From Eubacteriales bacterium (lineage in GTDB: Bacteria > Bacillota > Clostridia > Oscillospirales > UBA644), in NCBI GenBank assembly GCA_045637625.1, contig JAZTZU010000040.1, forward strand, positions 38,474 through 102,473: a DNA stretch of 64,000 nucleotides, read 5' to 3'. Below are positions 7,643 to 63,403 of this stretch, piece after piece. The notes beneath the pieces are model-generated. The model made no database searches and was not told the DNA's origin. It saw only the letters and a list, made by a program, of their open reading frames with translations. Numbering within the stretch: position 1 is the first letter of the stretch; each line of letters opens with the position of its first letter. A program made the position numbers and the translations under genes.

Positions 7643-9400
7643 ATGGGAATTTTAACTTACGATAAAAAGAATTTTCTTATGGACGGAGAGCCGTATCAAA
7701 TCATTTCGGGGGCTATCCACTATTTCAGAGTTCACCCGAAATATTGGGAAGACAGATTGAAAAAGCTTAAGGCTTGCGGATTCAACACGGTTGAAACCTA
7801 TGTCTGCTGGAACCTTCACGAAAGAAAAGAAGGCGTTTTTGACTTTGAAGGAATTCTGGATATAGAAAAATTTGTATCTATCGCAGAGGCTCTCGATCTG
7901 AATGTAATTGTCAGACCGGGACCGTATATCTGCGCAGAATGGGATCTCGGAGGTCTCCCCTCATGGCTGCTCACATATTCAAACATTGCGATCAGATGCA
8001 ACGACCCCGTATATCTTGAAAAAGTTGAGCCTTATTACAATGAACTTTTCAAACGTCTCAGACCTCACCTTTCAACAAATGGCGGCAGAATAATAATGAT
8101 GCAGGTTGAAAATGAATACGGAAGTTATGGAGACGACAAGGAGTACTTACGCAAAGTCCGCGACATTTACGTTAAAAACGGTATCGACTGCCAGCTTTTC
8201 ACATCAGACGGAACACATCTTTGGATGCTCAGCGGCGGTACTTTGCCGGGACTTCTCTCAGTTGCAAACTTCGGAAGCAATCCAAAAGGCAATGCGGAAG
8301 CACTTAAAGCGTTCAGACCCGACGAACCCTTTATGTGCGGCGAATTCTGGTGCGGTTGGTTCGACCATTGGTATGCAGGACATACAAACCCCAGACCTGC
8401 GGAAGTTGCCAGCCTGGTTCAGGACTTCTTTGATATCGGAGGTTCCTTTAACTTCTATATGTTCCACGGCGGTACAAATTTCGGATTCCTGAACGGCGCA
8501 AACCACACGGGAGAAGAATATCAGCCAACCATTACAAGTTACGACTATTGCGCACCGTTGAGTGAAGCAGGTGACATGACCGAAACATATTTCGCAATAA
8601 AGGAAGTTATCGAGAAAAATACAGGCAAAAAAGCTCCTGAGCTCAATGTTTCAAATTCACCCAAAGCAGCTTACGGCAGACTTGAACTTACAGAAAAAGC
8701 AACTCTTATGGAGAACCTCGCCAACATCTCCACACCCGTTCATGCGGCTTATCCCCAGACAATGGAACAGCTTGGACAGGATTTCGGATACGTGGTTTAC
8801 GCTACGGAGATTCACGGTCCTATTGAAAAGCTCCCTCTCCTCTTCACAAAACTCCACGACCGCGCACACATCTTCATAAACGGTGAACTTGTAGGTCAGA
8901 GAGAACGCTCACGCCGCAATGACGAAGTATTTTTGGAGCTTAAAGACGGAGAGACCGCAAAAGTAGAAATCCTCGTTGAAAACATGGGCAGAGTTAATTA
9001 CGGATTGAAACTTTTTGACCAAAAGGGAATTGTCGGAGGTATTCACCTTGGACAGAGATTCCATTTCGGTTGGGATCATTATTCATTGCCGATGGAAGAT
9101 CTCAGCGGCTTGAAGTGGAACGAAGCGTCCCCCTGCAATGTTCCCACATTCTATAAAGGAACATTAACGGTTGACGGCGAACCAAAAGATACATTCCTGA
9201 AAACAGAAAACTTCACAAAAGGCTGTGTTTTTGTAAACGGATTCAACCTCGGAAGATTTTTCAATCCAGCAGGTCCCACAAAAACCCTGTATGTTCCCGC
9301 ACCGCTGCTTAAACAGGGCGAAAATGAGATAATTGTTTTTGAATCCGATGTATGTACAGAGCCCGTTGTGGAATTCCTTGCAGAACCCGATTTAGGTTAA
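7643..9400 (+). CDS. glycoside hydrolase family 35 beta-galactosidase
   Basis: AAAGGAG RBS. GAIHYFRVHPKYWEDRLKKLKACGFNTVETYVCWNLHE and VENEYGSYG are GH35 hallmark segments. Confidence 0.9.
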   Translation: MGILTYDKKNFLMDGEPYQIISGAIHYFRVHPKYWEDRLKKLKACGFNTVETYVCWNLHERKEGVFDFEGILDIEKFVSIAEALDLNVIVRPGPYICAEWDLGGLPSWLLTYSNIAIRCNDPVYLEKVEPYYNELFKRLRPHLSTNGGRIIMMQVENEYGSYGDDKEYLRKVRDIYVKNGIDCQLFTSDGTHLWMLSGGTLPGLLSVANFGSNPKGNAEALKAFRPDEPFMCGEFWCGWFDHWYAGHTNPRPAEVASLVQDFFDIGGSFNFYMFHGGTNFGFLNGANHTGEEYQPTITSYDYCAPLSEAGDMTETYFAIKEVIEKNTGKKAPELNVSNSPKAAYGRLELTEKATLMENLANISTPVHAAYPQTMEQLGQDFGYVVYATEIHGPIEKLPLLFTKLHDRAHIFINGELVGQRERSRRNDEVFLELKDGETAKVEILVENMGRVNYGLKLFDQKGIVGGIHLGQRFHFGWDHYSLPMEDLSGLKWNEASPCNVPTFYKGTLTVDGEPKDTFLKTENFTKGCVFVNGFNLGRFFNPAGPTKTLYVPAPLLKQGENEIIVFESDVCTEPVVEFLAEPDLG

Positions 9401-9431
9401 GAACAGTAATAGAAACTGAAGGTGAAGAATT

Positions 9432-11819
9432 ATGAAAAAATTTTTAGCAATACTGCTTGCGACGTCAATGCTTCTGACTATGCTTGCAGCGTGTAACAAT
9501 GAACAGCAGGTTGAAATACCTGACGAACCCGATGAACCAAGCCAAGGAGATGTGACTGAAATGCCCGAAGAACCCAAAGATCCCGCAATTGAAGAACCTG
9601 TTCCCGTACCCGAATACAAGGAATATGAAGTAAGTGCTGAAAACACTCTTACAAGCAAAAACGAAGAAATTTCTTTAAACGCAGCCGAAAATATTTTGTA
9701 TGTAACAAGTCTTTCGACTTCAGCAAACAAAGAGAATAAACTTGCGGAAAACTCAAAATTTTCTCTCCCGAAATATATAAAAATCGACAAGAAGAAAACT
9801 GAGCTGAATTGGGAATACGTATCTGCTTTGAAATATGAAAACAAAGAAGTAAACGGTGTTCTCACCAACGGACTCGTTTATAAATTCCATGAAGCAACTC
9901 AGAATCTCGATCTCAGAGTTTACTGCGTTGTCCGTCCCGAACTTTCAGGTCCGTTTGAATTCTACATGGAAGTTGACAACCTCAACGAAAGCGAAATCAG
10001 AATCTATCTTGAGGGTGGTTTTGCATCTCTCTCAACAAAAATCTTGGATCATGCAGCTACTGATGTTATCAGAATTGCAAGTGAAGGCTTCATTGCAGAA
10101 GGTCATGTTCAGAACGCAGATGCTTTGAACAATCCGAACTATAACAACGGTGTAATGTACGAGGGTACGGGTATTGAAGTTTTCAACCTCAGTAATGCGA
10201 AGCTGATTTCAAGTGAAAGACCTGATTTCCAGAGCAACGGCGGTGACTACACAGCACAATTCATAGACAGAGAAAACGACGGTATTTTCTACGCTCTTGC
10301 ATGGACAACAGGTCGTGTATGGTCAAAAGTTGAAAAAGACGGATACATCGAAACAAAAGCCTCTTTGGATAACGATGAAGGTAAATTTGAAACACTCATC
10401 CAGCCAGGTGACACATTCATAATCCCCTCTGTATATGTTCTTCCTTATGAGGGAGATATTGATGACGGATCAAACATCTTCAAAGCATGGTTCTTTGACT
10501 GCAAAGTTGTTCCCACACTCAGAGATGACCCTGCATTGCCTTATGTTCAGATAGACATTCAGATGTCACCCGAAGACGCAAAGGCTGCAGGAATTGACTC
10601 AATGAAACGTGAATACGGCTGGTGGTCAGGAATAGGCTTCAACGCAGAAAGACCTCTTCCCTATGAGGGTTCATGGACGCTTATGGCAGACGGCATCGAC
10701 ACTCCTAATTATACCCATGAAGATATGAAAAATTACGGAGCAAAACTTGACGAGCTCGGTCTGAACTACGCTATGTATATCCTGCTCCACGAAACAGTTG
10801 ACGAAAACGGAAATCCCACAGACCAATACGGAGAACTCAACGCTGTAACACATCCCGAATGGTTTTCAAACCAGAGACATCCATTCTGCAGGCTTGCAGA
10901 CCTCGGTAATGTTGAATGTGTTGAATATTTAAAAACTACACTTGAAAAATTCTTCAAAAACAACAATGTCGATCAGTGGAGAACAGACTTTGAGCCTATC
11001 GCAGTATATTCCGACCAGAAGAACAGACATGACGCTAACGGTTCAGACGTTTCATATTGGTGTACGGTAGGATTTGCCGAAATTGTAAATCATCTTTATG
11101 ATACAGTTGAGGGCTTCAAGTTTGAAAGCTGTAACTCCGGCGGCGGTGACAAGAACCTCTACATTGCGGAACTCACAACATTCTTCAACTGCGACGATAC
11201 CGCAAACTATCTCAGTCTGAGAACTTCTTTCTACGACAGCTCATACATCATTCACCCTGCACAGCTCGAAATCCCCTGCAACACAGAGACATTCAATCCC
11301 AACTGCAAGCAGTATTTCTTCCCCGTTGTACCTAAACCTGAAGTTGCGGCAGAAGACACCTATGACTTCACAGATGCAATGATGGATATGGGCTTCAGAA
11401 GTACTATAATCGGTATCCCAATGTGGGCTCCATGGACAGGAATTGTTCCTGCTGAGTATTACAACGAATACGCACATATGTACAAGGAACGTGTCAAACC
11501 CCTTGTTCGTGACGGTGAACTTTATCACATTCTGCCCAGACCTGACGGTGTGAACTGGGACGGTATCATGTATGCTGATCCCGACAGTGCAAACGAGATC
11601 AAAGGCGTTGTTTTCCTCTTCAAACCCTCTGCTGATGTTGAAAATGTGAAGAATATCGTGTTTGACGGCCTTGACGAAAGTACCGTATATCAGCTCACAT
11701 TTGAAGACAGACCCGAGCAGAATTGCACCGCTACAGGCGCTGACCTCATGACTAATGGCATCGACGTTGAGATAAAATATGTCGGTTCTGAGATGATCTG
11801 GATCACCGAAGCGAAATAA
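9432..11819 (+). CDS. lipoprotein, divergent GH36-like (clan GH-D) glycosidase, paralogue 1
   Basis: Signal peptide plus lipobox MLAAC. HPEW...LADLGNVECVEYL...VDQWRTDFEP...FESCNSGGGDKN...CDDTANYLSLRTSFYDSSYIIHP is collinear with GH36 alpha-galactosidase blocks (HPDW...LDxS...YIKWDMN...ESCSGGGGRFD...TSDNTDALERL). Confidence 0.65.
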   Translation: MKKFLAILLATSMLLTMLAACNNEQQVEIPDEPDEPSQGDVTEMPEEPKDPAIEEPVPVPEYKEYEVSAENTLTSKNEEISLNAAENILYVTSLSTSANKENKLAENSKFSLPKYIKIDKKKTELNWEYVSALKYENKEVNGVLTNGLVYKFHEATQNLDLRVYCVVRPELSGPFEFYMEVDNLNESEIRIYLEGGFASLSTKILDHAATDVIRIASEGFIAEGHVQNADALNNPNYNNGVMYEGTGIEVFNLSNAKLISSERPDFQSNGGDYTAQFIDRENDGIFYALAWTTGRVWSKVEKDGYIETKASLDNDEGKFETLIQPGDTFIIPSVYVLPYEGDIDDGSNIFKAWFFDCKVVPTLRDDPALPYVQIDIQMSPEDAKAAGIDSMKREYGWWSGIGFNAERPLPYEGSWTLMADGIDTPNYTHEDMKNYGAKLDELGLNYAMYILLHETVDENGNPTDQYGELNAVTHPEWFSNQRHPFCRLADLGNVECVEYLKTTLEKFFKNNNVDQWRTDFEPIAVYSDQKNRHDANGSDVSYWCTVGFAEIVNHLYDTVEGFKFESCNSGGGDKNLYIAELTTFFNCDDTANYLSLRTSFYDSSYIIHPAQLEIPCNTETFNPNCKQYFFPVVPKPEVAAEDTYDFTDAMMDMGFRSTIIGIPMWAPWTGIVPAEYYNEYAHMYKERVKPLVRDGELYHILPRPDGVNWDGIMYADPDSANEIKGVVFLFKPSADVENVKNIVFDGLDESTVYQLTFEDRPEQNCTATGADLMTNGIDVEIKYVGSEMIWITEAK
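11517..11819 (+). repeat. 303-bp near-identical segment shared with 13901-14203
   Basis: Hand alignment to 13901-14203 gives 21 mismatches in 303 nt with no indels, most of them synonymous. Similarity collapses immediately upstream. Confidence 0.9.
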
Positions 11820-11839
11820 ATTAAAAAGGAGCAACGATC

Positions 11840-14203
11840 ATGAAAAAAATAATTACTTTATTACTTGCGATGTCAATACTCTTGACCATACTTGCGGCGT
11901 GCAACAACACACCAACAGAGACGCCAAACGAGCCTGACACCCCTGAAGTGATTGACCCCGTCGAGCCAAATGTTCCTGATGAGCCGGAAATTGTCGAACC
12001 CGTTATACCCGAATATTCCGAAACGGAAGTTGGCGCGGAGAACACAATTACAAATGCTGGAACAACAATCACATTGAATGTTTCCGAAAACAAGCTTCTT
12101 ATTACGAATGTGGCAACGACTGCTTCAAATGAGAATATGCTTGCTGAAAATTCAGTTTATGCGTTACCCAAATACTACCAGACGGAATTTCCCTCAAAAG
12201 AGACATTCGATCTGAACTGGAGTTTCACTTCCGCTGTAAAATTTGTAAACAAAGAAGTTAAGGGTGTAATGACTTCCGGCTTGATTTACAATTTTGAAGA
12301 TACAGCTCAGAATGTAAAGCTCCGTGTTTATTGTGTTGTACGTGATGACCTCAGCGGACCTTTCGAGTTCTATACAGAACTTGAAAACTGCAACGACACA
12401 CCTTTCAGAATTGCGCCTAATGATATTGCATCATTCAGCATAAATTTGATTGATGAGACCACGACCGATTTCATCAAGATTAACAGAGAGGGTCGGGTTG
12501 CAGGCGGATTTGCACTCGGGAATGAAAGCATTAACTCAGTTAAGGGTTTTCACCGAACAAACATCAGCCAAATTAAAAAGTGGACAACAATCTATACAAC
12601 AACCGACGATGGAAACAAAGATGATTTTCCTGCAATATATGTTGACAGAAACGGTCAGGACGGTTTGTTTATTGCACTTGAATGGACTCACGGAAAGATA
12701 AAATTTGTAAACAACCACGACAACACAGCAGATGCAACCATAAGCATTGACGACAGCACAGAAAAACCAAATTTCTTTACTACAGAAGTTCCTGAAAATG
12801 AGATATTCCTTCTCCCATCAATATATCTTTTGCCTTATGATGGCTCAATAGATGACGGAAGCAATATTTATAAAAAATGGTTCTTTGAATGTAAAACAAT
12901 CTCAACCCTCAGAGATAACCCCAATGAGCCTTTAACTCAAATAGACAGCCAATTACATCCCGAAGAATGCATTGAAACAGGCATTGAATCCATAAAATGG
13001 GAATACGGATGGTGGACAACTCACGGTTTTACAAAACCACATTCACTTGAAGGCTCCTGGGTATTCAGAAGTCAAGACTATAAAAATTATATAAACTATA
13101 TTGGTTGCGAAACCCTTGAAGATTACGGTAAAAAGCTTGACGAATACAATATAAACTGGACGCTTTACCTGTTACTTCATGACACTGTAGATCTTGAAGG
13201 CAATATAACGGATCAACACGGGGAATTCAACTCCATAACACATCCCGAATGGTTTACGAGCGAATCACACAATAATAAATTGGCAGACCTCGGTAATACA
13301 GAATGTGTAAACTATGTAAAAAACACATTAGCTGATCTTTTCAATACTAACCATATTGATACTTGGAGAACAGACTTCCAACCTATAGCCTCTGAATCAG
13401 AAAACAAAAATAGGCATGATGCCAACGGCACAGACGTTTCGTATTGGGCAACGAGAGGATTCTTTGAAATTATAGACCATTTATACGACACAGTCGATGG
13501 ATTCAGATATGAAAGCTGTTCTTTAGGTGGTTGCCAAAAAGATATTTATACAGCAACAAGAGTTGTAATCTTTAACACGGAAGACTCAGCAAACTACCTG
13601 AATATGAGAGCCGCATTCTATGACAGCAGCTATATTTTACACCCTGCACAGCTCCAATTCCCATGTAACCCAGATTTCTGGGATCCGATACAGCCGAGTT
13701 TTACCCCGAACATTCCGGCCCCGACAGTTGCGGAAGGAGACAATTACGATTTCCGTACTGCAATGCTTGACATGGGATACAGATCGACAATTTTAGGTGT
13801 ACCACATTGGGGTTCATGGACAAATACACCTCATGTTGATTACTATAAGAAATATGCAACTCTTTACAAAGAAAAGGTTCGTCCTCTCGTACGTGAAGCG
13901 GAACTTTACCACATTCTCCCCAGACCTGACGGTGTGAACTGGGACGGTATCATGTATGCTGACCCCGACAGTGCAAACGAGATCAAGGGTGTTGTTTTCC
14001 TCTTCAAACCCTCTGCTGATGTTGAAAATGTGAAAAACATCGTGTTTGACGGCCTTGACGAAAGTACCGTATATCAGCTCACATTTGAAGACCGACCCGA
14101 ACAGAATTGCACCGCTACCGGCGCTGACCTCATGACAAAAGGTATCGATGTTGAGATAAAATATGTCGGTTCTGAGATCATTTGGATAACAAAAGCCGAA
14201 TAA
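11840..14203 (+). CDS. lipoprotein, divergent GH36-like glycosidase, paralogue 2
   Basis: AAGGAG RBS and lipobox ILAAC. Same block structure as paralogue 1 (IDTWRTDFQP, YESCSLGGCQKD). Roughly half the residues are shared with paralogue 1, except the almost identical last 100 aa. Confidence 0.65.
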   Translation: MKKIITLLLAMSILLTILAACNNTPTETPNEPDTPEVIDPVEPNVPDEPEIVEPVIPEYSETEVGAENTITNAGTTITLNVSENKLLITNVATTASNENMLAENSVYALPKYYQTEFPSKETFDLNWSFTSAVKFVNKEVKGVMTSGLIYNFEDTAQNVKLRVYCVVRDDLSGPFEFYTELENCNDTPFRIAPNDIASFSINLIDETTTDFIKINREGRVAGGFALGNESINSVKGFHRTNISQIKKWTTIYTTTDDGNKDDFPAIYVDRNGQDGLFIALEWTHGKIKFVNNHDNTADATISIDDSTEKPNFFTTEVPENEIFLLPSIYLLPYDGSIDDGSNIYKKWFFECKTISTLRDNPNEPLTQIDSQLHPEECIETGIESIKWEYGWWTTHGFTKPHSLEGSWVFRSQDYKNYINYIGCETLEDYGKKLDEYNINWTLYLLLHDTVDLEGNITDQHGEFNSITHPEWFTSESHNNKLADLGNTECVNYVKNTLADLFNTNHIDTWRTDFQPIASESENKNRHDANGTDVSYWATRGFFEIIDHLYDTVDGFRYESCSLGGCQKDIYTATRVVIFNTEDSANYLNMRAAFYDSSYILHPAQLQFPCNPDFWDPIQPSFTPNIPAPTVAEGDNYDFRTAMLDMGYRSTILGVPHWGSWTNTPHVDYYKKYATLYKEKVRPLVREAELYHILPRPDGVNWDGIMYADPDSANEIKGVVFLFKPSADVENVKNIVFDGLDESTVYQLTFEDRPEQNCTATGADLMTKGIDVEIKYVGSEIIWITKAE
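13901..14203 (+). repeat. second copy of the 303-bp segment
   Basis: See 11517-11819. Confidence 0.9.
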
Positions 14204-14385: not shown

Positions 14386-15195
14386 ATGGAAACAAAAGAA
14401 TTTGCCAAAGAAATGCGTAAATTGATTCTGGAAGCTATTTACAACTCAAAGAGCGGTCATCCCGGTGGCTCTCTTTCATGCACAGATATTCTCGCTGTGC
14501 TCTACAACGAAGAAATGAGAAGAGATGCAAAAGATCCCAAGAACCTCGACAGAGACAGATTTGTTCTCTCAAAAGGTCATGCTTGCCCCGCCATGTATGC
14601 GGCTCTCGCACTCAAAGGTTACTTCCCTGTTGAAGACATCAAAACATTCAGAAAGATCGACAGTTACCTTGAAGGTCATCCCGATATGAAACATATCCCC
14701 GGCGTAGACATGAGCACAGGCTCTCTCGGTCAGGGCGTTTCTGCTGCTTGCGGTATGGCTATCGCAGGAAAAAAACAGAATAAGGATTACAGAGTTTATA
14801 CAGTTCTCGGCGACGGTGAGATCGAAGAAGGTCAGTGCTGGGAAGCATTCATGTTCGCTGCACATTATAAACTCAGCAACCTCTGCGTTTTCATCGACTC
14901 CAACGGTCTCCAGATCGACGGTGATGTAAACGAAGTTATGTCTTCTGCTCCTCTTGCAGATAAAATGAAGGCCTTCGGATTCAATACTCTTGAAATCGAC
15001 GGACACGACTTTGACGCTATAAGAGGCGCTCTCAAAGCAGCTAAAGAATGTACAGACAAGCCCACTGCCGTTATCGCAAAAACAGTTAAAGGCAAAGGCG
15101 TTTCCTTCATGGAAAACCAGGCTGGCTGGCACGGTATAGCACCCAACAAAGAACAGTACGAACAAGGTATCAAGGAGGTCGAAGCAAATGGCTGA
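14386..15195 (+). CDS. transketolase, N-terminal (TPP-binding) subunit
   Basis: SGHPGGSLSCTDILAVLY, GDGEIEEGQCWEA and a length of 269 aa are typical of split transketolases in Clostridia. Confidence 0.9.
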   Translation: METKEFAKEMRKLILEAIYNSKSGHPGGSLSCTDILAVLYNEEMRRDAKDPKNLDRDRFVLSKGHACPAMYAALALKGYFPVEDIKTFRKIDSYLEGHPDMKHIPGVDMSTGSLGQGVSAACGMAIAGKKQNKDYRVYTVLGDGEIEEGQCWEAFMFAAHYKLSNLCVFIDSNGLQIDGDVNEVMSSAPLADKMKAFGFNTLEIDGHDFDAIRGALKAAKECTDKPTAVIAKTVKGKGVSFMENQAGWHGIAPNKEQYEQGIKEVEANG

Positions 15196-16165
15196 GATGA
15201 AAGCTCAAAGAGATGCATACGGTGAAGTTCTTATTGAACTCGGAAACAAGTACGAAAATCTTTTCGTTCTCGATGCAGACCTTACAAAATCCACAAAAAC
15301 TGCAGATTTCAAAAAAGCTTTCCCCGAAAGACATATCAACTGCGGTATCGCTGAAGGCAACATGATGACAACAGCAGCAGGTATTGCTACTTGCGGAAAC
15401 ATCGTTTTTGCTTCCACTTTCGCAATGTTTGCTGCAGGTCGTGCTTACGAACAGATCAGAAACAGTATTGCATATCCACACAACAACGTAAAAGTCGTTG
15501 CAACTCACGCAGGTCTTACAGTAGGTGAAGACGGTGCTACTCACCAGTGTCTTGAAGACATAGCACTCATGAGAGCTGTTCCGGGAATGATCGTTCTCGC
15601 TCCTTCCGACGCTGTTCAGACAAAAGAAGCTTGCCGTTTTGCAGCAGAATACGACGGACCTGTTTACATCCGTGTGGGCAGACTTCCCATTCCTGTTGTT
15701 TACAAAGAAGAAGATTACAAATTCGAACTCGGCAAGAGCGAACAGTTGGCTGACGGTAAAGATGTTACTCTTATGTTCTGCGGTCCCTTCTACGCTTTGG
15801 CGTGCGAAGTTAAAGAACTTCTTGAAAAGAACGGTCTTACAGCAAGAATCGTTGATATGCCCTCAATCAAACCCCTTGACACAGATGCTGTAAAAGCGGC
15901 TATCGAAGATACTGGACTTATCGTTACCATTGAAGACCATAATGTTTACGGAGGTCTCGGAAGCGCAGTAAGCGATGCTCTTGCAGAACTTGACATTTGC
16001 AGAAAGAACGGAACAGAGATCATTAAGATCGGTGCTCAGGACAAGTTCGGAACATCCGGAACACCTGCGGAGATCCTCAAGGCTTACGGATTTGATGCAG
16101 TTGAAATTGCAAAAAAGATCATCAAAACAAAATGCCCCGAATTCGCCGGTGAATTCAACTTCTAA
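15188..16165 (+). CDS. transketolase, C-terminal (pyrimidine-binding) subunit
   Basis: GGAGG RBS and an 8-nt overlap with the N-terminal subunit. CGIAEGNMMTTAAG...THQCLEDIALMRAVP motifs. Confidence 0.9.
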   Translation: MAEMKAQRDAYGEVLIELGNKYENLFVLDADLTKSTKTADFKKAFPERHINCGIAEGNMMTTAAGIATCGNIVFASTFAMFAAGRAYEQIRNSIAYPHNNVKVVATHAGLTVGEDGATHQCLEDIALMRAVPGMIVLAPSDAVQTKEACRFAAEYDGPVYIRVGRLPIPVVYKEEDYKFELGKSEQLADGKDVTLMFCGPFYALACEVKELLEKNGLTARIVDMPSIKPLDTDAVKAAIEDTGLIVTIEDHNVYGGLGSAVSDALAELDICRKNGTEIIKIGAQDKFGTSGTPAEILKAYGFDAVEIAKKIIKTKCPEFAGEFNF

Positions 16166-16186
16166 GAAATTTATATTTTAAATAAT

Positions 16187-16256
16187 ATGGGAAAAACTTT
16201 CTTTTCACGAAAAAGAAAGTTTTTCCCATACCCTTTTCAAAAAACCGGTTCCCCGA
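16187..16256 (+). repeat. hairpin-plus-tail 3' element, copy 1
   Basis: ATGGGAAAAACTTTCTTTT-CACGA-AAAAGAAAGTTTTTCCCAT followed by ACCCTTTTCAAAAAACCGGTTCCCCGAC. Starts 22 nt after the transketolase stop. Confidence 0.85.
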
Positions 16257-16387: not shown

Positions 16388-16416
16388 TTGATTTTTCATA
16401 GGTTTTGTGGTATAAT
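16388..16416 (+). promoter_or_regulatory. putative promoter of the sortase gene pair
   Basis: TTGATT (16388-16393), 17 nt, TATAAT (16411-16416), with a TG-containing spacer end. Confidence 0.5.
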
Positions 16417-16524
16417 TACGGGTGGTTCAAACTTCATCAAAAAACGACACGGTCGGAACCTGAGTCACAACACATTCTGAACCGTGTATATTCTTCTGAA
16501 AACAGACTATGGAGGCTAATTTTA

Positions 16525-18165
16525 ATGCAGACAATCAAAACAAGAACAAGATTTATGGCGCTGCTCCTTTGTTTCGTAACGGTATTTTCGCTTATTACCG
16601 CCTGCGGCAAAGACGAACAGCCGGAACAGAAACTTGTTAAGTCCATAACACTTAACATGACAGAATACACTTTCACAAGCTATGACACAACCGTTAAGCT
16701 TGAAGCTTTTGCAATTCCTTCAGATGCCGACAACGCAAACGACCTTGTATGGCAGAGTGCAAATGTCAACATTGCATCTATCAACGCAGATCACGAAGTA
16801 GTACCGATGTCCAACGGTAAAACAGTTATTACTGTTTCCACATCCGACGGTACAGTAACTGCGATGTGCAACATTACAGTTGACGTTGAAGAAGTTGTTG
16901 AGATACCCAATATCCCCGTTGAAAGCGTAAGAATCAACTCAGAATCTTATACATTTGACGAGATCGGTGACACATACAGATTAACAGAAGACGTTCTTCC
17001 CTTCTCCGCAACAAACCCCTCTGTAGTATGGTCATCCTCAGACGAATCAGTTGCGACCGTTGATGCAGCAGGTCTTGTTACTGCAATCAAAAAAGGTACT
17101 GCAACGATCACAGTAACAACAAATGACGGAGGATTCACCGCATCCTGTCAGATCACAGTTGAACCCAAACCCGAAACACCGGCAGTAGATCCCGACAACG
17201 GAAACCAGAGTCAGGGTAACAGCGGTAACTCCGGAAACACCGGAAACAGTGGCAACTCCGGAAACACTGGAAACAGTGGCAACAGCGGCAACTCCGGAAA
17301 CACAGGAACTTCAACAACAAAATTTGACAGAGAAAAGTACTTTAAACCCGTTATTGACTCCGCAGGATATCTTGTAAGCGACGGTCTTGAATATTTCAAC
17401 AGCTACAACCCCGACTGTGTTGCATGGCTTTACATCCCCAACACTAAAGGTTCCGACGGTCTCGGTGAGATCAACTTTGCGGTAGCTCAGGGCAATGACA
17501 ACGAATTATATCTTTCCGTAGGTCTCGATAAAAAGTGGAAAGACGAAGGTTCTGTTTTGGTTGACTACCGAAACTCAATCAAATCCTCAGGCGGTAAGAT
17601 CACAGATAAAAACACAATCTTCTACGGTCACGCAAAAGGAAAAACAACTTTCGACAGACTTGAATTTGCAACAAGATCCGATGAATGGTTCAGCAAAGAA
17701 AGCAACAGATATGTATATCTGAACACCCTCACAGAAGAAACTGTATGGAAAGTCTTTGCATGCTACTACACAGACTCTTCTCAGCACTATTACCTCGATA
17801 TCAACTGGCTTTGGGATACAGAAACATTGAGCGCTCTCCAGGAGACCTTGACAACAGATGAAAAGCTCGAACTTATTCTCGACGAATCCGGAAAGAAAAT
17901 GATGAACTTTATCAATGACGGTAAAACATTTGCTTCTTTCGCAAACAACTGGAGACAGAGAATCAGTACACCTGAAAACGACAAGGAATACGAAACAACT
18001 TACAAGCCTTATGCTCCCATTCTCAGAAACAGAGATTACGGAGTAACTGTAGGTCCCGATGATCAGATCATCACTCTTTCAACATGTTCTTCCGACGTAG
18101 GTAATATGAGATATGTTCTTCATGCTGTTCTTGTTCAGTCAAGACCCAGAACAGACAGAGACTAA
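16525..18165 (+). CDS. lipoprotein with two Big_2 (Ig-like) domains, GNS/GNT linker and C-terminal class B sortase domain
   Basis: ATG 16525 with GGAGG 9 nt upstream. Signal plus lipobox FSLITAC. Two repeats of the Big_2 pattern (VWQSANVNIASI..., VVWSSSDESVATVDAAGLVTAIKKGTATITV). The sortase B blocks VAWLYIPNT...AVAQGNDNELYL...LVDYRN...TIFYGHAKG...ITLSTCSSDVGNMRYVLHAVL are present, with His, Cys and Arg (Cys+8) in place. Confidence 0.75.
   Translation: MQTIKTRTRFMALLLCFVTVFSLITACGKDEQPEQKLVKSITLNMTEYTFTSYDTTVKLEAFAIPSDADNANDLVWQSANVNIASINADHEVVPMSNGKTVITVSTSDGTVTAMCNITVDVEEVVEIPNIPVESVRINSESYTFDEIGDTYRLTEDVLPFSATNPSVVWSSSDESVATVDAAGLVTAIKKGTATITVTTNDGGFTASCQITVEPKPETPAVDPDNGNQSQGNSGNSGNTGNSGNSGNTGNSGNSGNSGNTGTSTTKFDREKYFKPVIDSAGYLVSDGLEYFNSYNPDCVAWLYIPNTKGSDGLGEINFAVAQGNDNELYLSVGLDKKWKDEGSVLVDYRNSIKSSGGKITDKNTIFYGHAKGKTTFDRLEFATRSDEWFSKESNRYVYLNTLTEETVWKVFACYYTDSSQHYYLDINWLWDTETLSALQETLTTDEKLELILDESGKKMMNFINDGKTFASFANNWRQRISTPENDKEYETTYKPYAPILRNRDYGVTVGPDDQIITLSTCSSDVGNMRYVLHAVLVQSRPRTDRD
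17215..17307 (+). repeat. in-frame tandem repeat encoding (GNS/GNT)n
   Basis: 93 nt encoding GNSGNSGNT GNSGNSGNT GNSGNSGNSGNT G, made of 27/27/36-nt imperfect units. Confidence 0.9.
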
Positions 18166-18186: not shown

Positions 18187-19467
18187 ATGGCAGATATCGA
18201 TAACAAAAACGAAACAGCGGTAAATGAAGCCGCAGAAACAAAAGCTCCCGCAAAGAAAAGCGGAGGCAAAAACAATATAATCAGAATCGTTATCCTTGTA
18301 CTTTGCATCGGAGTTTTCGCTTTCTCCGTGTTCAAGATCGGAAGTGACCTTGTGGACGACAACTCTACAGGAGATGAATACAACGATCTCCACGAACTCG
18401 CAGGAAGAGATGAAGTAAACAACGATACACCAACAATTCCCGATGACTCTCAAAACAACAACGAATCTCAGGGTTCTGAAAACAACAACGAAAAAGATCC
18501 CGTTGAACCGACTGATCCCGATCCTGTTGAACCAAATGTTCCCGATGATTCTCAGTCTTCCGAAAACACGGAAACACCCACAACACCCGAAAATCCCGGC
18601 GACAGCACAGAAACACCCGATGATAACACAAATGTTCCCGACAACAGCACGGAAACACCTGACAATACACAGACTCAGACACCTTCAACTGATCCGATGA
18701 ACCCCAGTTCATACAACGACCAGACTGCTGCTGAAGCTGAAAAGGATAAAACTCAGAATGCAATTGTTACAGTAACAAGACCCAATGCATCTCTTGACAA
18801 AACAGACCTTTCAGTTATCCACCCAGACAACATCAAACTTGAAGATATTGCATATCTCAGCGGAATCGACTTCAAAAAGCTTGAACAGAGAAACAGCGAT
18901 ACAGTTGCATGGATCTGCATCCCCGGCAATGACTCAATCACAGGTCTCCCCGTAGATACTGCGGTTGTTCAGACTACAGACAACAGCTACTATCTCTCCC
19001 ACAGCTTCGATAAGTCCGACAATGTAAACGGTTGGATCTACGCAGACTACCGCAACAACATGTCAAATATCACATCAAACTACAACACCGTAATTTACGG
19101 ACACGCAAGAAGCTACCGTATGTTCGGCGGTTTGAAGAACCTCAACGCAACACCTGAATGGTACAAAAACGGATACAACCACTTCATCAAGATCTCAACA
19201 CCCAATGAAGAAACTATCTGGCAGATATTCTCATGGCACGAAACAAACGTTTACTATAACTACATTCAGACAGAATTTACAAGTGCTCAGGAATTCATTG
19301 ATTTTGCAACTGAACTTCAGGACAAAAACGAACTGAAAGGTTATTTCTCAACATTCGAATTCTCTGAAAACAGCAGAATCATTACCCTTTCAACATGTAA
19401 AGGTTCCAACCCCGCAAACAGAGTTGCCGTGCATGCAGTTCTCGTTGCAAGAAACCCTCTCAAGTAA
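18187..19467 (+). CDS. membrane-anchored class B sortase homologue with long acidic Pro/Thr/Asp-rich stalk
   Basis: N-terminal TM segment IIRIVILVLCIGVFAFSVF and a low-complexity stalk of roughly 150-170 aa. Sortase B blocks TVAWICIPGN...VVQTTDNSYYL...YADYRN...TVIYGHARS...ITLSTCKGSNPANRVAVHAVL. Confidence 0.75.
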   Translation: MADIDNKNETAVNEAAETKAPAKKSGGKNNIIRIVILVLCIGVFAFSVFKIGSDLVDDNSTGDEYNDLHELAGRDEVNNDTPTIPDDSQNNNESQGSENNNEKDPVEPTDPDPVEPNVPDDSQSSENTETPTTPENPGDSTETPDDNTNVPDNSTETPDNTQTQTPSTDPMNPSSYNDQTAAEAEKDKTQNAIVTVTRPNASLDKTDLSVIHPDNIKLEDIAYLSGIDFKKLEQRNSDTVAWICIPGNDSITGLPVDTAVVQTTDNSYYLSHSFDKSDNVNGWIYADYRNNMSNITSNYNTVIYGHARSYRMFGGLKNLNATPEWYKNGYNHFIKISTPNEETIWQIFSWHETNVYYNYIQTEFTSAQEFIDFATELQDKNELKGYFSTFEFSENSRIITLSTCKGSNPANRVAVHAVLVARNPLK

Positions 19468-19482
19468 TTTAATACTTATTTT

Positions 19483-19542
19483 ATGGGAAAAACTTTCTTT
19501 TCACAAAAGGAGGTTTTTCCCAAACCTTTTTCGGCTGAAACC
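19483..19542 (+). repeat. hairpin-plus-tail 3' element, copy 2 (most diverged)
   Basis: ATGGGAAAAACTTTCTTTT-CAC-AAAAGGAGGTTTTTCCCA, in which the two non-Watson-Crick positions are T opposite G. Tail AACCTTTTTCGGCTGAAACC. Starts 16 nt after the sortase stop. Confidence 0.75.
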
Positions 19543-62849: not shown

Positions 62850-62942
62850 TCAGATAAAATGATTTGTGGGGAAAACTTCTTTTCACGGAAAAAGAAGTTT
62901 TCCCCATACCCCTTTCAAGAAAACCGATGTTTGGGCAAAAAA
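62847..62942 (+). repeat. hairpin-plus-tail 3' element, copy 3 (extended form, includes the fucI stop)
   Basis: TAATCAGATAAAATGATTTG-TGGGGAAAACTTCTTTT-CACGGA-AAAAGAAGTTTTCCCCA-TACCCCTTTCAAGAAAACCGATGTTTGGGCAAAAAA. Confidence 0.9.
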
Positions 62943-63090
62943 TAATTTATTTATGCACTCTTTCAAAAAATTCAGTGTGCTTGACACAAAAATCTTTTTA
63001 ACCCTCAATCGTAACAGCTGACGCCCAAACTGTTTGATGGAAATTATTTATTTTCCCAAGCTCGCTTTTCTTTTTCGGGGATCAAAGGGA

Positions 63091-63188
63091 TAATCAGAAT
63101 AAAATGATTTGTGGGGAAAACTTCTTTTCACGGAAAAAGAAGTTTTCCCCACACCCTTTTCAAGAAAACCGATGTTTGGACAAAAAAA
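63091..63188 (+). repeat. hairpin-plus-tail 3' element, copy 4 (direct duplicate of copy 3, 244 bp downstream)
   Basis: TAATCAGAATAAAATGATTTG-TGGGGAAAACTTCTTTT-CACGGA-AAAAGAAGTTTTCCCCA-CACCCTTTTCAAGAAAACCGATGTTTGGACAAAAAA. Confidence 0.9.
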
Positions 63189-63325
63189 ATTTATTTATGG
63201 AGGAACATTTTTGTAAAATTGTTCCCTCACGCTCCTTCTAAAAACTTTTATGTAAAGCATTTTATGTTTTACGGGGATGATAAAAACAACGAAAAAAGAT
63301 TTGCAACGAGTTTTCCCACTAATAA

Positions 63326-63403
63326 ATTGCCCCCCAATTCGGTTTTGTTGGAAAGGGGTATGGGGAAAACCTTATTTTTTCGTGAAAATAAGGTTTTCCC
63401 CAT
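63326..63403 (-). repeat. hairpin-plus-tail 3' element, copy 5 (inverted; 3' of serA)
   Basis: Minus-strand reading: ATGGGGAAAACCTTATTTT-CACGAA-AAAATAAGGTTTTCCCCAT-ACCCCTTTCCAACAAAACCGAATTGGGGGGCAATT. Begins 22 nt after the serA stop. Confidence 0.85.

Follow-up and report, generated by a model that had tools for sequence, protein, structure and literature searches.

A Predicted Ig-Stalked Class-B-Type Sortase Encoded Beside a Second Sortase in Uncultured Gut Clostridia

We describe a gene, at positions 16525 to 18165 of a 64,000-nucleotide stretch of DNA from an Eubacteriales bacterium (GenBank assembly GCA_045637625.1, contig JAZTZU010000040.1, positions 38,474 to 102,473, forward strand; this whole stretch is hereafter the window, and positions are counted from its first letter), whose product is most likely an active, specialised sortase mounted on two immunoglobulin (Ig)-like domains. 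The gene is predicted to open an operon of two sortases that is kept across a small group of uncultured, Oscillospiraceae-like Clostridia from gut and rumen. Its product appears to represent a real and conserved sortase architecture that has apparently not been described before. Textbook sortases are small, single-domain enzymes that act at the membrane, where they meet a membrane-held substrate and lipid II. What would such an enzyme do at the end of a stalk? A preliminary description, made from the sequence, had proposed a lipid-anchored class B sortase held away from the membrane by Ig-like domains, and the computational analysis reported here followed up that proposal.

Catalytic Domain

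By its fold and its catalytic motifs, the protein is predicted to be a member of the sortase superfamily, closest to class B. The Pfam model Sortase (PF04203) matches at 31.1 bits, over its cut-off of 26.6, and phmmer comparison with the PDB retrieves SrtB of Bacillus anthracis (E 1.5e-13) and of Clostridioides difficile (E 8e-11). An AlphaFold2 model built on a 16-sequence alignment (mean predicted local distance difference test score, pLDDT, 80; predicted template modelling score, pTM, 0.72) gives most of the catalytic domain a pLDDT of 85-96. When Foldseek was run against the PDB, 13 class B sortase structures came out on top with probability 1.00 and target-normalised template modelling (TM) scores of 0.61-0.78; class B sortases (MEROPS C60B; TIGR03064) thus have the same fold, with 1ng5, 2oqw, 4ux7 and 5b23 at TM 0.66-0.78 and Foldseek probability 1.0. 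His369 (in FYGHA) and Cys521 (in TLSTC) are invariant in the 16 homologues, and Arg529, eight residues after Cys521, takes the place of the catalytic Arg in an alignment with B. anthracis SrtB. The same features, namely TLSTC, a YGH motif around the His and an Arg that follows the Cys by 8-10 residues, are shared with the SrtB enzymes of Staphylococcus aureus, B. anthracis, C. difficile (CD2718) and Clostridium perfringens. Conservation within the protein is highest in the catalytic core, at 61% mean pairwise identity and 38 invariant columns.

The preliminary description was right that the catalytic His, Cys and Arg are all in place. Its further claim, that the protein ends in a complete sortase B domain, stands as far as the class-B-type fold and the full triad are concerned, but not as regards completeness: matches to the domain are split, an extra helical segment is present, and the score against NCBIfam TIGR03064, the class B sortase model, is 80.5 bits (E 1.1e-22; model positions 63-186 only) against a cut-off of 153.75. 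The low score is due to the extra segment, where the region linking the beta6-equivalent strand to the Cys strand is expanded into helices (Table 1). This region is about 50-65 residues longer than its counterpart in canonical SrtB, and both the hidden Markov model (HMM) and the PDB matches break in two around it. The spacing from His to Cys is accordingly 155 residues in the window protein and 145-164 in its subfamily, against 101 in the neighbouring sortase and 100-106 in the partner sortases. The insertion is modelled as seven short helices at residues 432-501, mostly at pLDDT 87-94, and is moderately conserved (39% mean pairwise identity), with D465, W476, R479 and R503 invariant in the 16 homologues. 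A 2024 review (PMC11231552) places the differences between sortase classes in the beta6/beta7 and beta7/beta8 loops. We infer that the insertion falls in the segment corresponding to the specificity-determining beta6/beta7 region of SrtB, so the enzyme probably reads a signal unlike that of its partner.

The typical single N-terminal transmembrane signal-anchor directly before the catalytic domain is absent; a lipobox signal and then about 245 residues of Ig-like domains and linker stand there instead. Such an anchor is usual in the sortase family but no essential part of it.

Ig Stalk, Linker, and Membrane Anchor

The Pfam family Big_2 (PF02368) matches the N-terminal part of the protein in two stretches (E 6.9e-25; 87.3 bits against a cut-off of 22.8), and AlphaFold2 models both as beta-sandwiches, at residues 40-119 and 134-212, with pLDDT >90. 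Foldseek pairs the Ig part with tandem Big domains such as those of LigA and with Big_2-CBM56. The two Big_2 domains proposed earlier are thereby confirmed, and a Pfam scan supports their combination with a sortase domain. Mean pairwise identity among the 16 homologues is 48% in the first Ig-like domain and 55% in the second; together with the figure for the catalytic core, this indicates that all folded parts are under purifying selection.

Residues about 224-264 of the linker have pLDDT <50, and a 9-bp tandem repeat of 10.1 copies at 17218-17308 (Tandem Repeats Finder) encodes its (GNS/GNT)n stretch, which had already been noticed in the sequence. The linker is hypervariable among the homologues, ranging from about 8 to 60 residues in length, with 28% mean pairwise identity. 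The stalk would reach roughly 8 nm as a rigid body plus at most about 15 nm of flexible linker, which is comparable to the partner's disordered tether. Since the linker is flexible, it still allows contact between catalytic domain and membrane, and because its length is not conserved, no fixed working height is implied. The idea that the enzyme is held away from the membrane therefore does not follow from the architecture. Nor is spacing from the membrane unique to this protein, since many clostridial SrtB-like enzymes, the product of the neighbouring gene included, have long tethers.

G+LPP, a pattern for Gram-positive lipoproteins attributed to Sutcliffe and Harrington, matches the N-terminal sequence MQTIKTRTRFMALLLCFVTVFSLITAC. 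The signal peptide has K5, R7 and R9, then 13 uncharged residues, then L-I-T-A-C27, which agrees with the lipobox criterion [LVI][ASTVI][GAS]C, and Cys27 is invariant in 16/16 homologues. The proposed lipoprotein signal is thus sound. Two more proteins in the window fit G+LPP, both of them GH36-like enzymes. The anchor type differs among relatives: most have a lipobox, but in P0137, P0139, P0140 and P0144 the same stalk and enzyme follow a transmembrane helix that is not cleaved. The lipid anchor is for this reason not the defining trait; the conserved feature would be the Ig stalk.

Table 1. Predicted features of the sortase locus, in window coordinates
Feature	Position	Strand	Residues or detail	Basis
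Hairpin terminator after upstream transketolase gene	16186..16230	.	20-pair stem	Terminator-like
Promoter-like site	16388..16416	+	TTGATT-17-TATAAT, extended -10 TG	Consensus match only
Ribosome-binding site	16511..16515	+	GGAGG, 9 nt 5' of ATG 16525	From sequence
Coding sequence, Ig-stalked class-B-type sortase lipoprotein	16525..18165	+	546 aa plus stop	
Lipoprotein signal peptide	16525..16605	+	1-27; lipobox L-I-T-A-C, Cys27	G+LPP match
Big_2 Ig-like domain 1	16636..16884	+	About 38-120	Pfam PF02368, AlphaFold2, Foldseek
Big_2 Ig-like domain 2	16918..17163	+	About 132-213	Best PF02368 stretch 132-209, AlphaFold2
Disordered G/N/S/T-rich linker	17164..17334	+	About 214-270	pLDDT, Tandem Repeats Finder
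Class-B-type sortase domain	17347..18147	+	About 275-541	Pfam, TIGR03064, PDB phmmer, Foldseek
Catalytic codon, His369	17629-17631	+		
Expanded helical region	17785..18060	+	About 421-512, between beta6-equivalent and Cys strands	
Catalytic codon, Cys521	18085-18087	+		
Catalytic codon, Arg529	18109-18111	+		
Partner SrtB-like sortase	18187..19467	+	426 aa, N-terminal transmembrane anchor	Pfam, TIGR03064
Hairpin terminator closing two-gene operon	19484..19522	+	18-pair stem, then T-rich tail	

The Sortase Pair and Its Locus

A second sortase gene begins 21 nt past the stop codon of the first. Its product matches Pfam Sortase at residues 256-420 and TIGR03064 at E 7.9e-34, the SrtB domain being the more canonical of the two, and the catalytic domains of the two enzymes are 25% identical. 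The partner's linker is acidic, rich in P/T/N/D/E, disordered and about 160 residues long; it contains a 24-bp tandem repeat in two copies at window 18496-18546 (DPVEPN...). The 9-bp and 24-bp repeats in the two genes suggest that linker lengths change by slippage. The partner lies directly downstream of the Ig-stalked gene in all related loci that have sequence there, down to relatives of 35% identity. The pair is kept together despite differing flanks, as the gene upstream is usually a transketolase and something else in one locus (L001). At another locus (L023, 2695-5785), there are three sortases in tandem, the first with a single Ig-like domain and the insertion and the next two SrtB-like with canonical spacing.

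The assignment of the pair to one operon relies on the promoter-like site, which matches 10/12 consensus positions plus the TG and is the best promoter match of the region, on two bracketing terminator hairpins, and on the 21-nt intergenic gap. The hairpin after the transketolase gene marks the 5' boundary of the operon. An Rfam scan of the window found no regulatory RNA 5' of it. The two flanking hairpins (16188-16228 and 19484-19522) have one 18-nt arm in common, TGGGAAAAACTTTCTTTT, which recurs at 19484. This arm has nine matches in the 64-kb window at up to three mismatches, against 0.22 expected by chance, with related copies at 62889-63402; the hairpin looks like a reused terminator or a repeat element. 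A recent horizontal insertion of the operon, which the matching hairpins had suggested, was rejected because the order of transketolase and sortase pair is kept in 35-45%-identical relatives and the guanine-plus-cytosine content matches that of the surroundings.

The start codon is well defined. The N-termini of the homologues (n=16) align from Met1, and Cys27 is the only invariant position among residues 1-27; ATG 16525 is therefore correct and the lipobox is within the protein. A longer open reading frame (ORF) from TTG 16405 was rejected, given the ribosome-binding site before ATG 16525 and the alignment of the homologues from Met1. The 546-residue ORF noted earlier is thus real, and the concern that the true start might lie downstream of the lipobox does not hold.

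Neighbouring genes in the window encode the transketolase, an AEC-family transporter and tsaE/tsaB-like proteins, and in relatives SMC and FtsY. The transketolase is split into N- and C-terminal subunits (window 14386-16165), immediately upstream; it is kept in most related loci even at 35-45% sortase identity, with no functional link apparent. Farther upstream is a glycan-utilisation cluster (window 7643-14203), with a GH35 beta-galactosidase at 7643-9400 and two paralogous GH36/melibiase-like proteins at 9432-11819 and 11840-14203, whose lipoprotein signals end in ...LTMLAAC and ...LTILAAC.

A Small Subfamily Defined by Its Architecture

An exhaustive HMMER search with the catalytic domain against 1.84 billion representative proteins detected 3,351 sortase relatives, among which no more than 14 clusters reached E<1e-30. 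These 14 match in a single stretch spanning the insertion, and every one of them whose sequence was read has one or two Ig-like domains at its N-terminal side. The subfamily is small, comprising about 25 clusters, with 23 loci among 185,579 species (one genome each). All 23 come from metagenome-assembled genomes labelled Oscillospiraceae, Ruminococcaceae, Clostridia or Eubacteriales, many of them from the gut of goat, deer or cattle. The same architecture is found in orthologues down to 35-40% identity, which argues that it is not an artefact of assembly or annotation, and it is uninterrupted in >25 independent assemblies from differing studies and hosts (35-85% identity). When the catalytic domain by itself was used in a word-index search for homologues, 8 matches and no new architectures resulted. 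NCBI names the relatives "Ig-like domain-containing protein" because their scores fall below the TIGR03064 cut-off.

The preliminary description had contrasted the protein with sortases of 200-250 residues. For SrtB this agrees with the 246 residues and N-terminal membrane anchor given in the 2024 review (PMC11231552), but many clostridial SrtB-like proteins in the representative-protein search are 350-590 residues long, and we found no discussion of this size diversity in that review. In ten such long proteins that were scanned (P0146-P0148, P0157, P0167, P0169, P0196, P0230, P0243 and P0271), Pfam detected the Sortase domain and no folded extracellular domain; their extra length consists of acidic disordered linkers of 100-250 residues, low-complexity C-terminal tails, or extensive cytoplasmic parts N-terminal to the transmembrane helix. 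The Ig fusion thus appears specific to the present subfamily. The suggestion that this architecture is undescribed holds as far as we searched: no lipoprotein sortase or Ig-fused sortase was described in the full-text literature examined, although such absence is no proof, and none occurs in the consulted parts of the 2024 review (PMC11231552) and of the SortPred paper.

Within the subfamily, Lys replaces the catalytic Arg in 7/27 members (P0009, P0064, P0073, P0134, P0135, P0138 and P0142). The Lys variant also occurs at loci L005 and L019-L022 (e.g. GEVMKYIVQ), where the partner sortases keep Arg. The window protein has Arg, and the partner enzyme retains it throughout the related loci. Several of the Lys-variant sortases have TLYTC in place of TLSTC. 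In S. aureus SrtA, the change of this Arg to Lys reportedly impairs activity and does not abolish it; a literature search for R197K gave no confirmation. These sortases form a distinct subfamily, set apart jointly by their architecture, by the expansion with helices, by the constant two-sortase operon and by the Arg/Lys polymorphism.

Substrate Search

Potential substrates were sought in the 64-kb window and in 28 related loci (about 300 kb; 10-kb flanks) by two scans, one with the regular expression xPx[TSA][GNASDV] followed by a hydrophobic stretch and a basic tail, the other motif-free, for a C-terminal transmembrane helix with a K/R tail. Neither yielded a convincing LPXTG/NPQTN/SPKTG-like substrate; apart from spurious ORFs and membrane proteins resembling ABC transporters, they returned a few tail-anchored, PT-rich proteins. 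These last (L018, 132-2075; L002, 15643-16116) are secreted and are encoded within a few kb of the two sortases; in them a PT-rich linker is followed by a C-terminal transmembrane helix and then by a K/R tail (e.g. ...PSAAQTGLSRKAKG-TM-RRNRNK). They have no motif in common and none that is LPXTG-like. Their topology resembles that of a sortase substrate, and they are possible candidate substrates with an unconventional signal.

Discussion

How might the two sortases work together? The account that we favour, and consider reasonably probable, is that they form a conserved pair in which the Ig-stalked enzyme is an active transpeptidase with a sorting signal of its own and the stalk is a spacer or docking module. 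Signal peptidase II would cut the exported protein, and the lipid on Cys27 would tie it to the outer face of the cytoplasmic membrane; outward from the lipid would follow two rigid Big_2 domains, a floppy linker of about 45-55 residues and the C-terminal sortase domain. Cys521 would attack the scissile bond in the C-terminal sorting signal of a secreted protein to form a thioester, and the acyl-enzyme would then be passed to an amine, either of a peptidoglycan precursor or cross-bridge or of a lysine in another surface protein. The expanded helical subdomain, with its invariant Trp and Arg residues, would read a signal differing from the partner's, and the two enzymes would divide the work by substrate set or by acceptor step. 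The Ig stalk would let the catalytic domain act at some height in the wall zone, and the long disordered tether of the partner may do likewise. The underlying chemistry is probably that of an ordinary sortase.

Several observations weigh against this account. The TIGR03064 score lies far under the cut-off of what is an equivalog model for SrtB. A linker that is not conserved in length sets no fixed working distance. About one member in four has Lys in place of the catalytic Arg, a hint that the chemistry may be altered in some of the subfamily at least. Finally, there is the failure of both scans to reveal a substrate near the pair.

Other explanations were considered. The sortase fold may have been kept while the enzyme drifted from the classical chemistry: instead of anchoring proteins to the wall, it might now be a cysteine protease or "sheddase" of the surface, or it might transfer acyl groups to an unusual acceptor. 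The score far below the equivalog cut-off, the large insertion adjoining the active-site strands, the Lys variants beside partners that always have Arg, and the lack of a substrate in the window and the related loci would all fit. The window protein nevertheless retains the full His-Cys-Arg triad and TLSTC, and the His and Cys are invariant across the family; sortases, moreover, already use a protease-like acyl-enzyme, and hydrolysis and transfer look alike in sequence. We judge such a drift to be unlikely. A polymerase-plus-anchor pair, as in sortase-assembled pili, would be a more specific form of the favoured account and does not contradict it: the Ig-stalked enzyme would polymerise a fibre and the partner would attach it to the wall. 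Some class B sortases are pilin polymerases, and Spy0129 (3psq) and the type II pilus SrtB of Streptococcus pneumoniae (4y4q) are among the Foldseek matches. The two sortases are of differing subtype and strictly co-inherited, and an enzyme that works on a growing fibre would be well served by a long stalk. The genes of pilus sortases normally sit within pilin clusters, however, and no pilin-like or sorting-signal gene stands beside the pair in about 25 loci, where the neighbours are housekeeping genes (transketolase, AEC transporter, SMC). The window protein is also no more similar in structure to pilus-type SrtBs than to those of housekeeping or heme type. A pilus system, too, therefore seems improbable to us.

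Far less credible is an Ig-domain surface adhesin or structural lipoprotein whose sortase-like domain is vestigial or a binding module. Big_2 domains are typical of adhesin stalks, and NCBI names the relatives by their Ig-like domains only, but that name reflects a sub-threshold HMM score and is not evidence. A vestigial domain would not retain an invariant His and Cys in 35-45%-identical orthologues, nor would one expect it to be the most conserved part of the protein. An artefact, whether a wrong start codon or a chimeric assembly of an Ig gene and a sortase gene, might be suspected from the metagenome-type assembly and the longer TTG-initiated ORF. That the architecture recurs in independent assemblies refutes such an artefact, the ribosome-binding site and the alignment of the homologues from Met1 also speak against it, and we give it practically no weight. 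At the other extreme, the Ig-stalked enzyme and its long-tethered partner might form an off-membrane pair acting within the wall or at its outer face, joining proteins to mature peptidoglycan, a surface glycopolymer, an S-layer or surface-protein lysines in place of lipid II, with a new signal read by the helical subdomain. This we regard as a long shot; if it were true, the Lys-for-Arg subclade would be a natural alternative configuration of the sortase active site.

How, then, does the favoured pair of active transpeptidases compare with known systems? Unlike other class B sortases, the Ig-stalked protein starts with a lipoprotein signal where they have an N-terminal signal-anchor helix, separates anchor from enzyme by a repeat linker and two folded Big_2 domains, and has the extra helical residues between the His and Cys strands that take its score below the equivalog cut-off. 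In S. aureus, isdC adjoins srtB, whereas here no substrate gene is adjacent. The family of the neighbouring sortase (18187..19467; also P0146-P0148, P0157 and P0167) comes closest in design, in that an SrtB-type domain is likewise tethered far from its membrane anchor in the same organisms. Its tether, in contrast, follows a transmembrane helix and is P/T/D/E/N-rich and unstructured, where the present family has Ig-like domains after a lipid anchor, and its catalytic domain is without the expansion and always has Arg.

The pilus class B sortases (Spy0129/SrtC2 of Streptococcus pyogenes and the pneumococcal SrtB), which are structural matches to the window protein, show that the class B fold can act as a specialised second sortase beside a housekeeping one; they lie inside pilin clusters and have a plain transmembrane anchor and no extra domains, unlike the Ig-stalked protein with its pilin-free flanks. 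Big_2-stalk proteins such as Leptospira LigA/LigB, intimin and fibrillar adhesins, like the present family, use a tandem Big_2 stalk to project a C-terminal functional domain, a notion set out in a bioRxiv preprint (10.1101/2020.12.07.414375). The head here is instead the type of enzyme that normally anchors such proteins, and the stalk has one or two domains only.

What does this family mean for the biology of sortases? Its importance is moderate, its chemistry being probably ordinary. There is an annotation gap, in which sortases are labelled by their Ig-like domains alone. The natural Arg-to-Lys variants offer a way to probe the role of the conserved Arg, and a new recognition motif, if present, would extend the toolbox of protein ligation ("sortagging"). 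An Ig-mounted, enlarged and always-paired family of sortases challenges the generality of the membrane-proximal picture, and it points to unexplored surface-display machinery in the abundant uncultured Clostridia of the rumen and gut.

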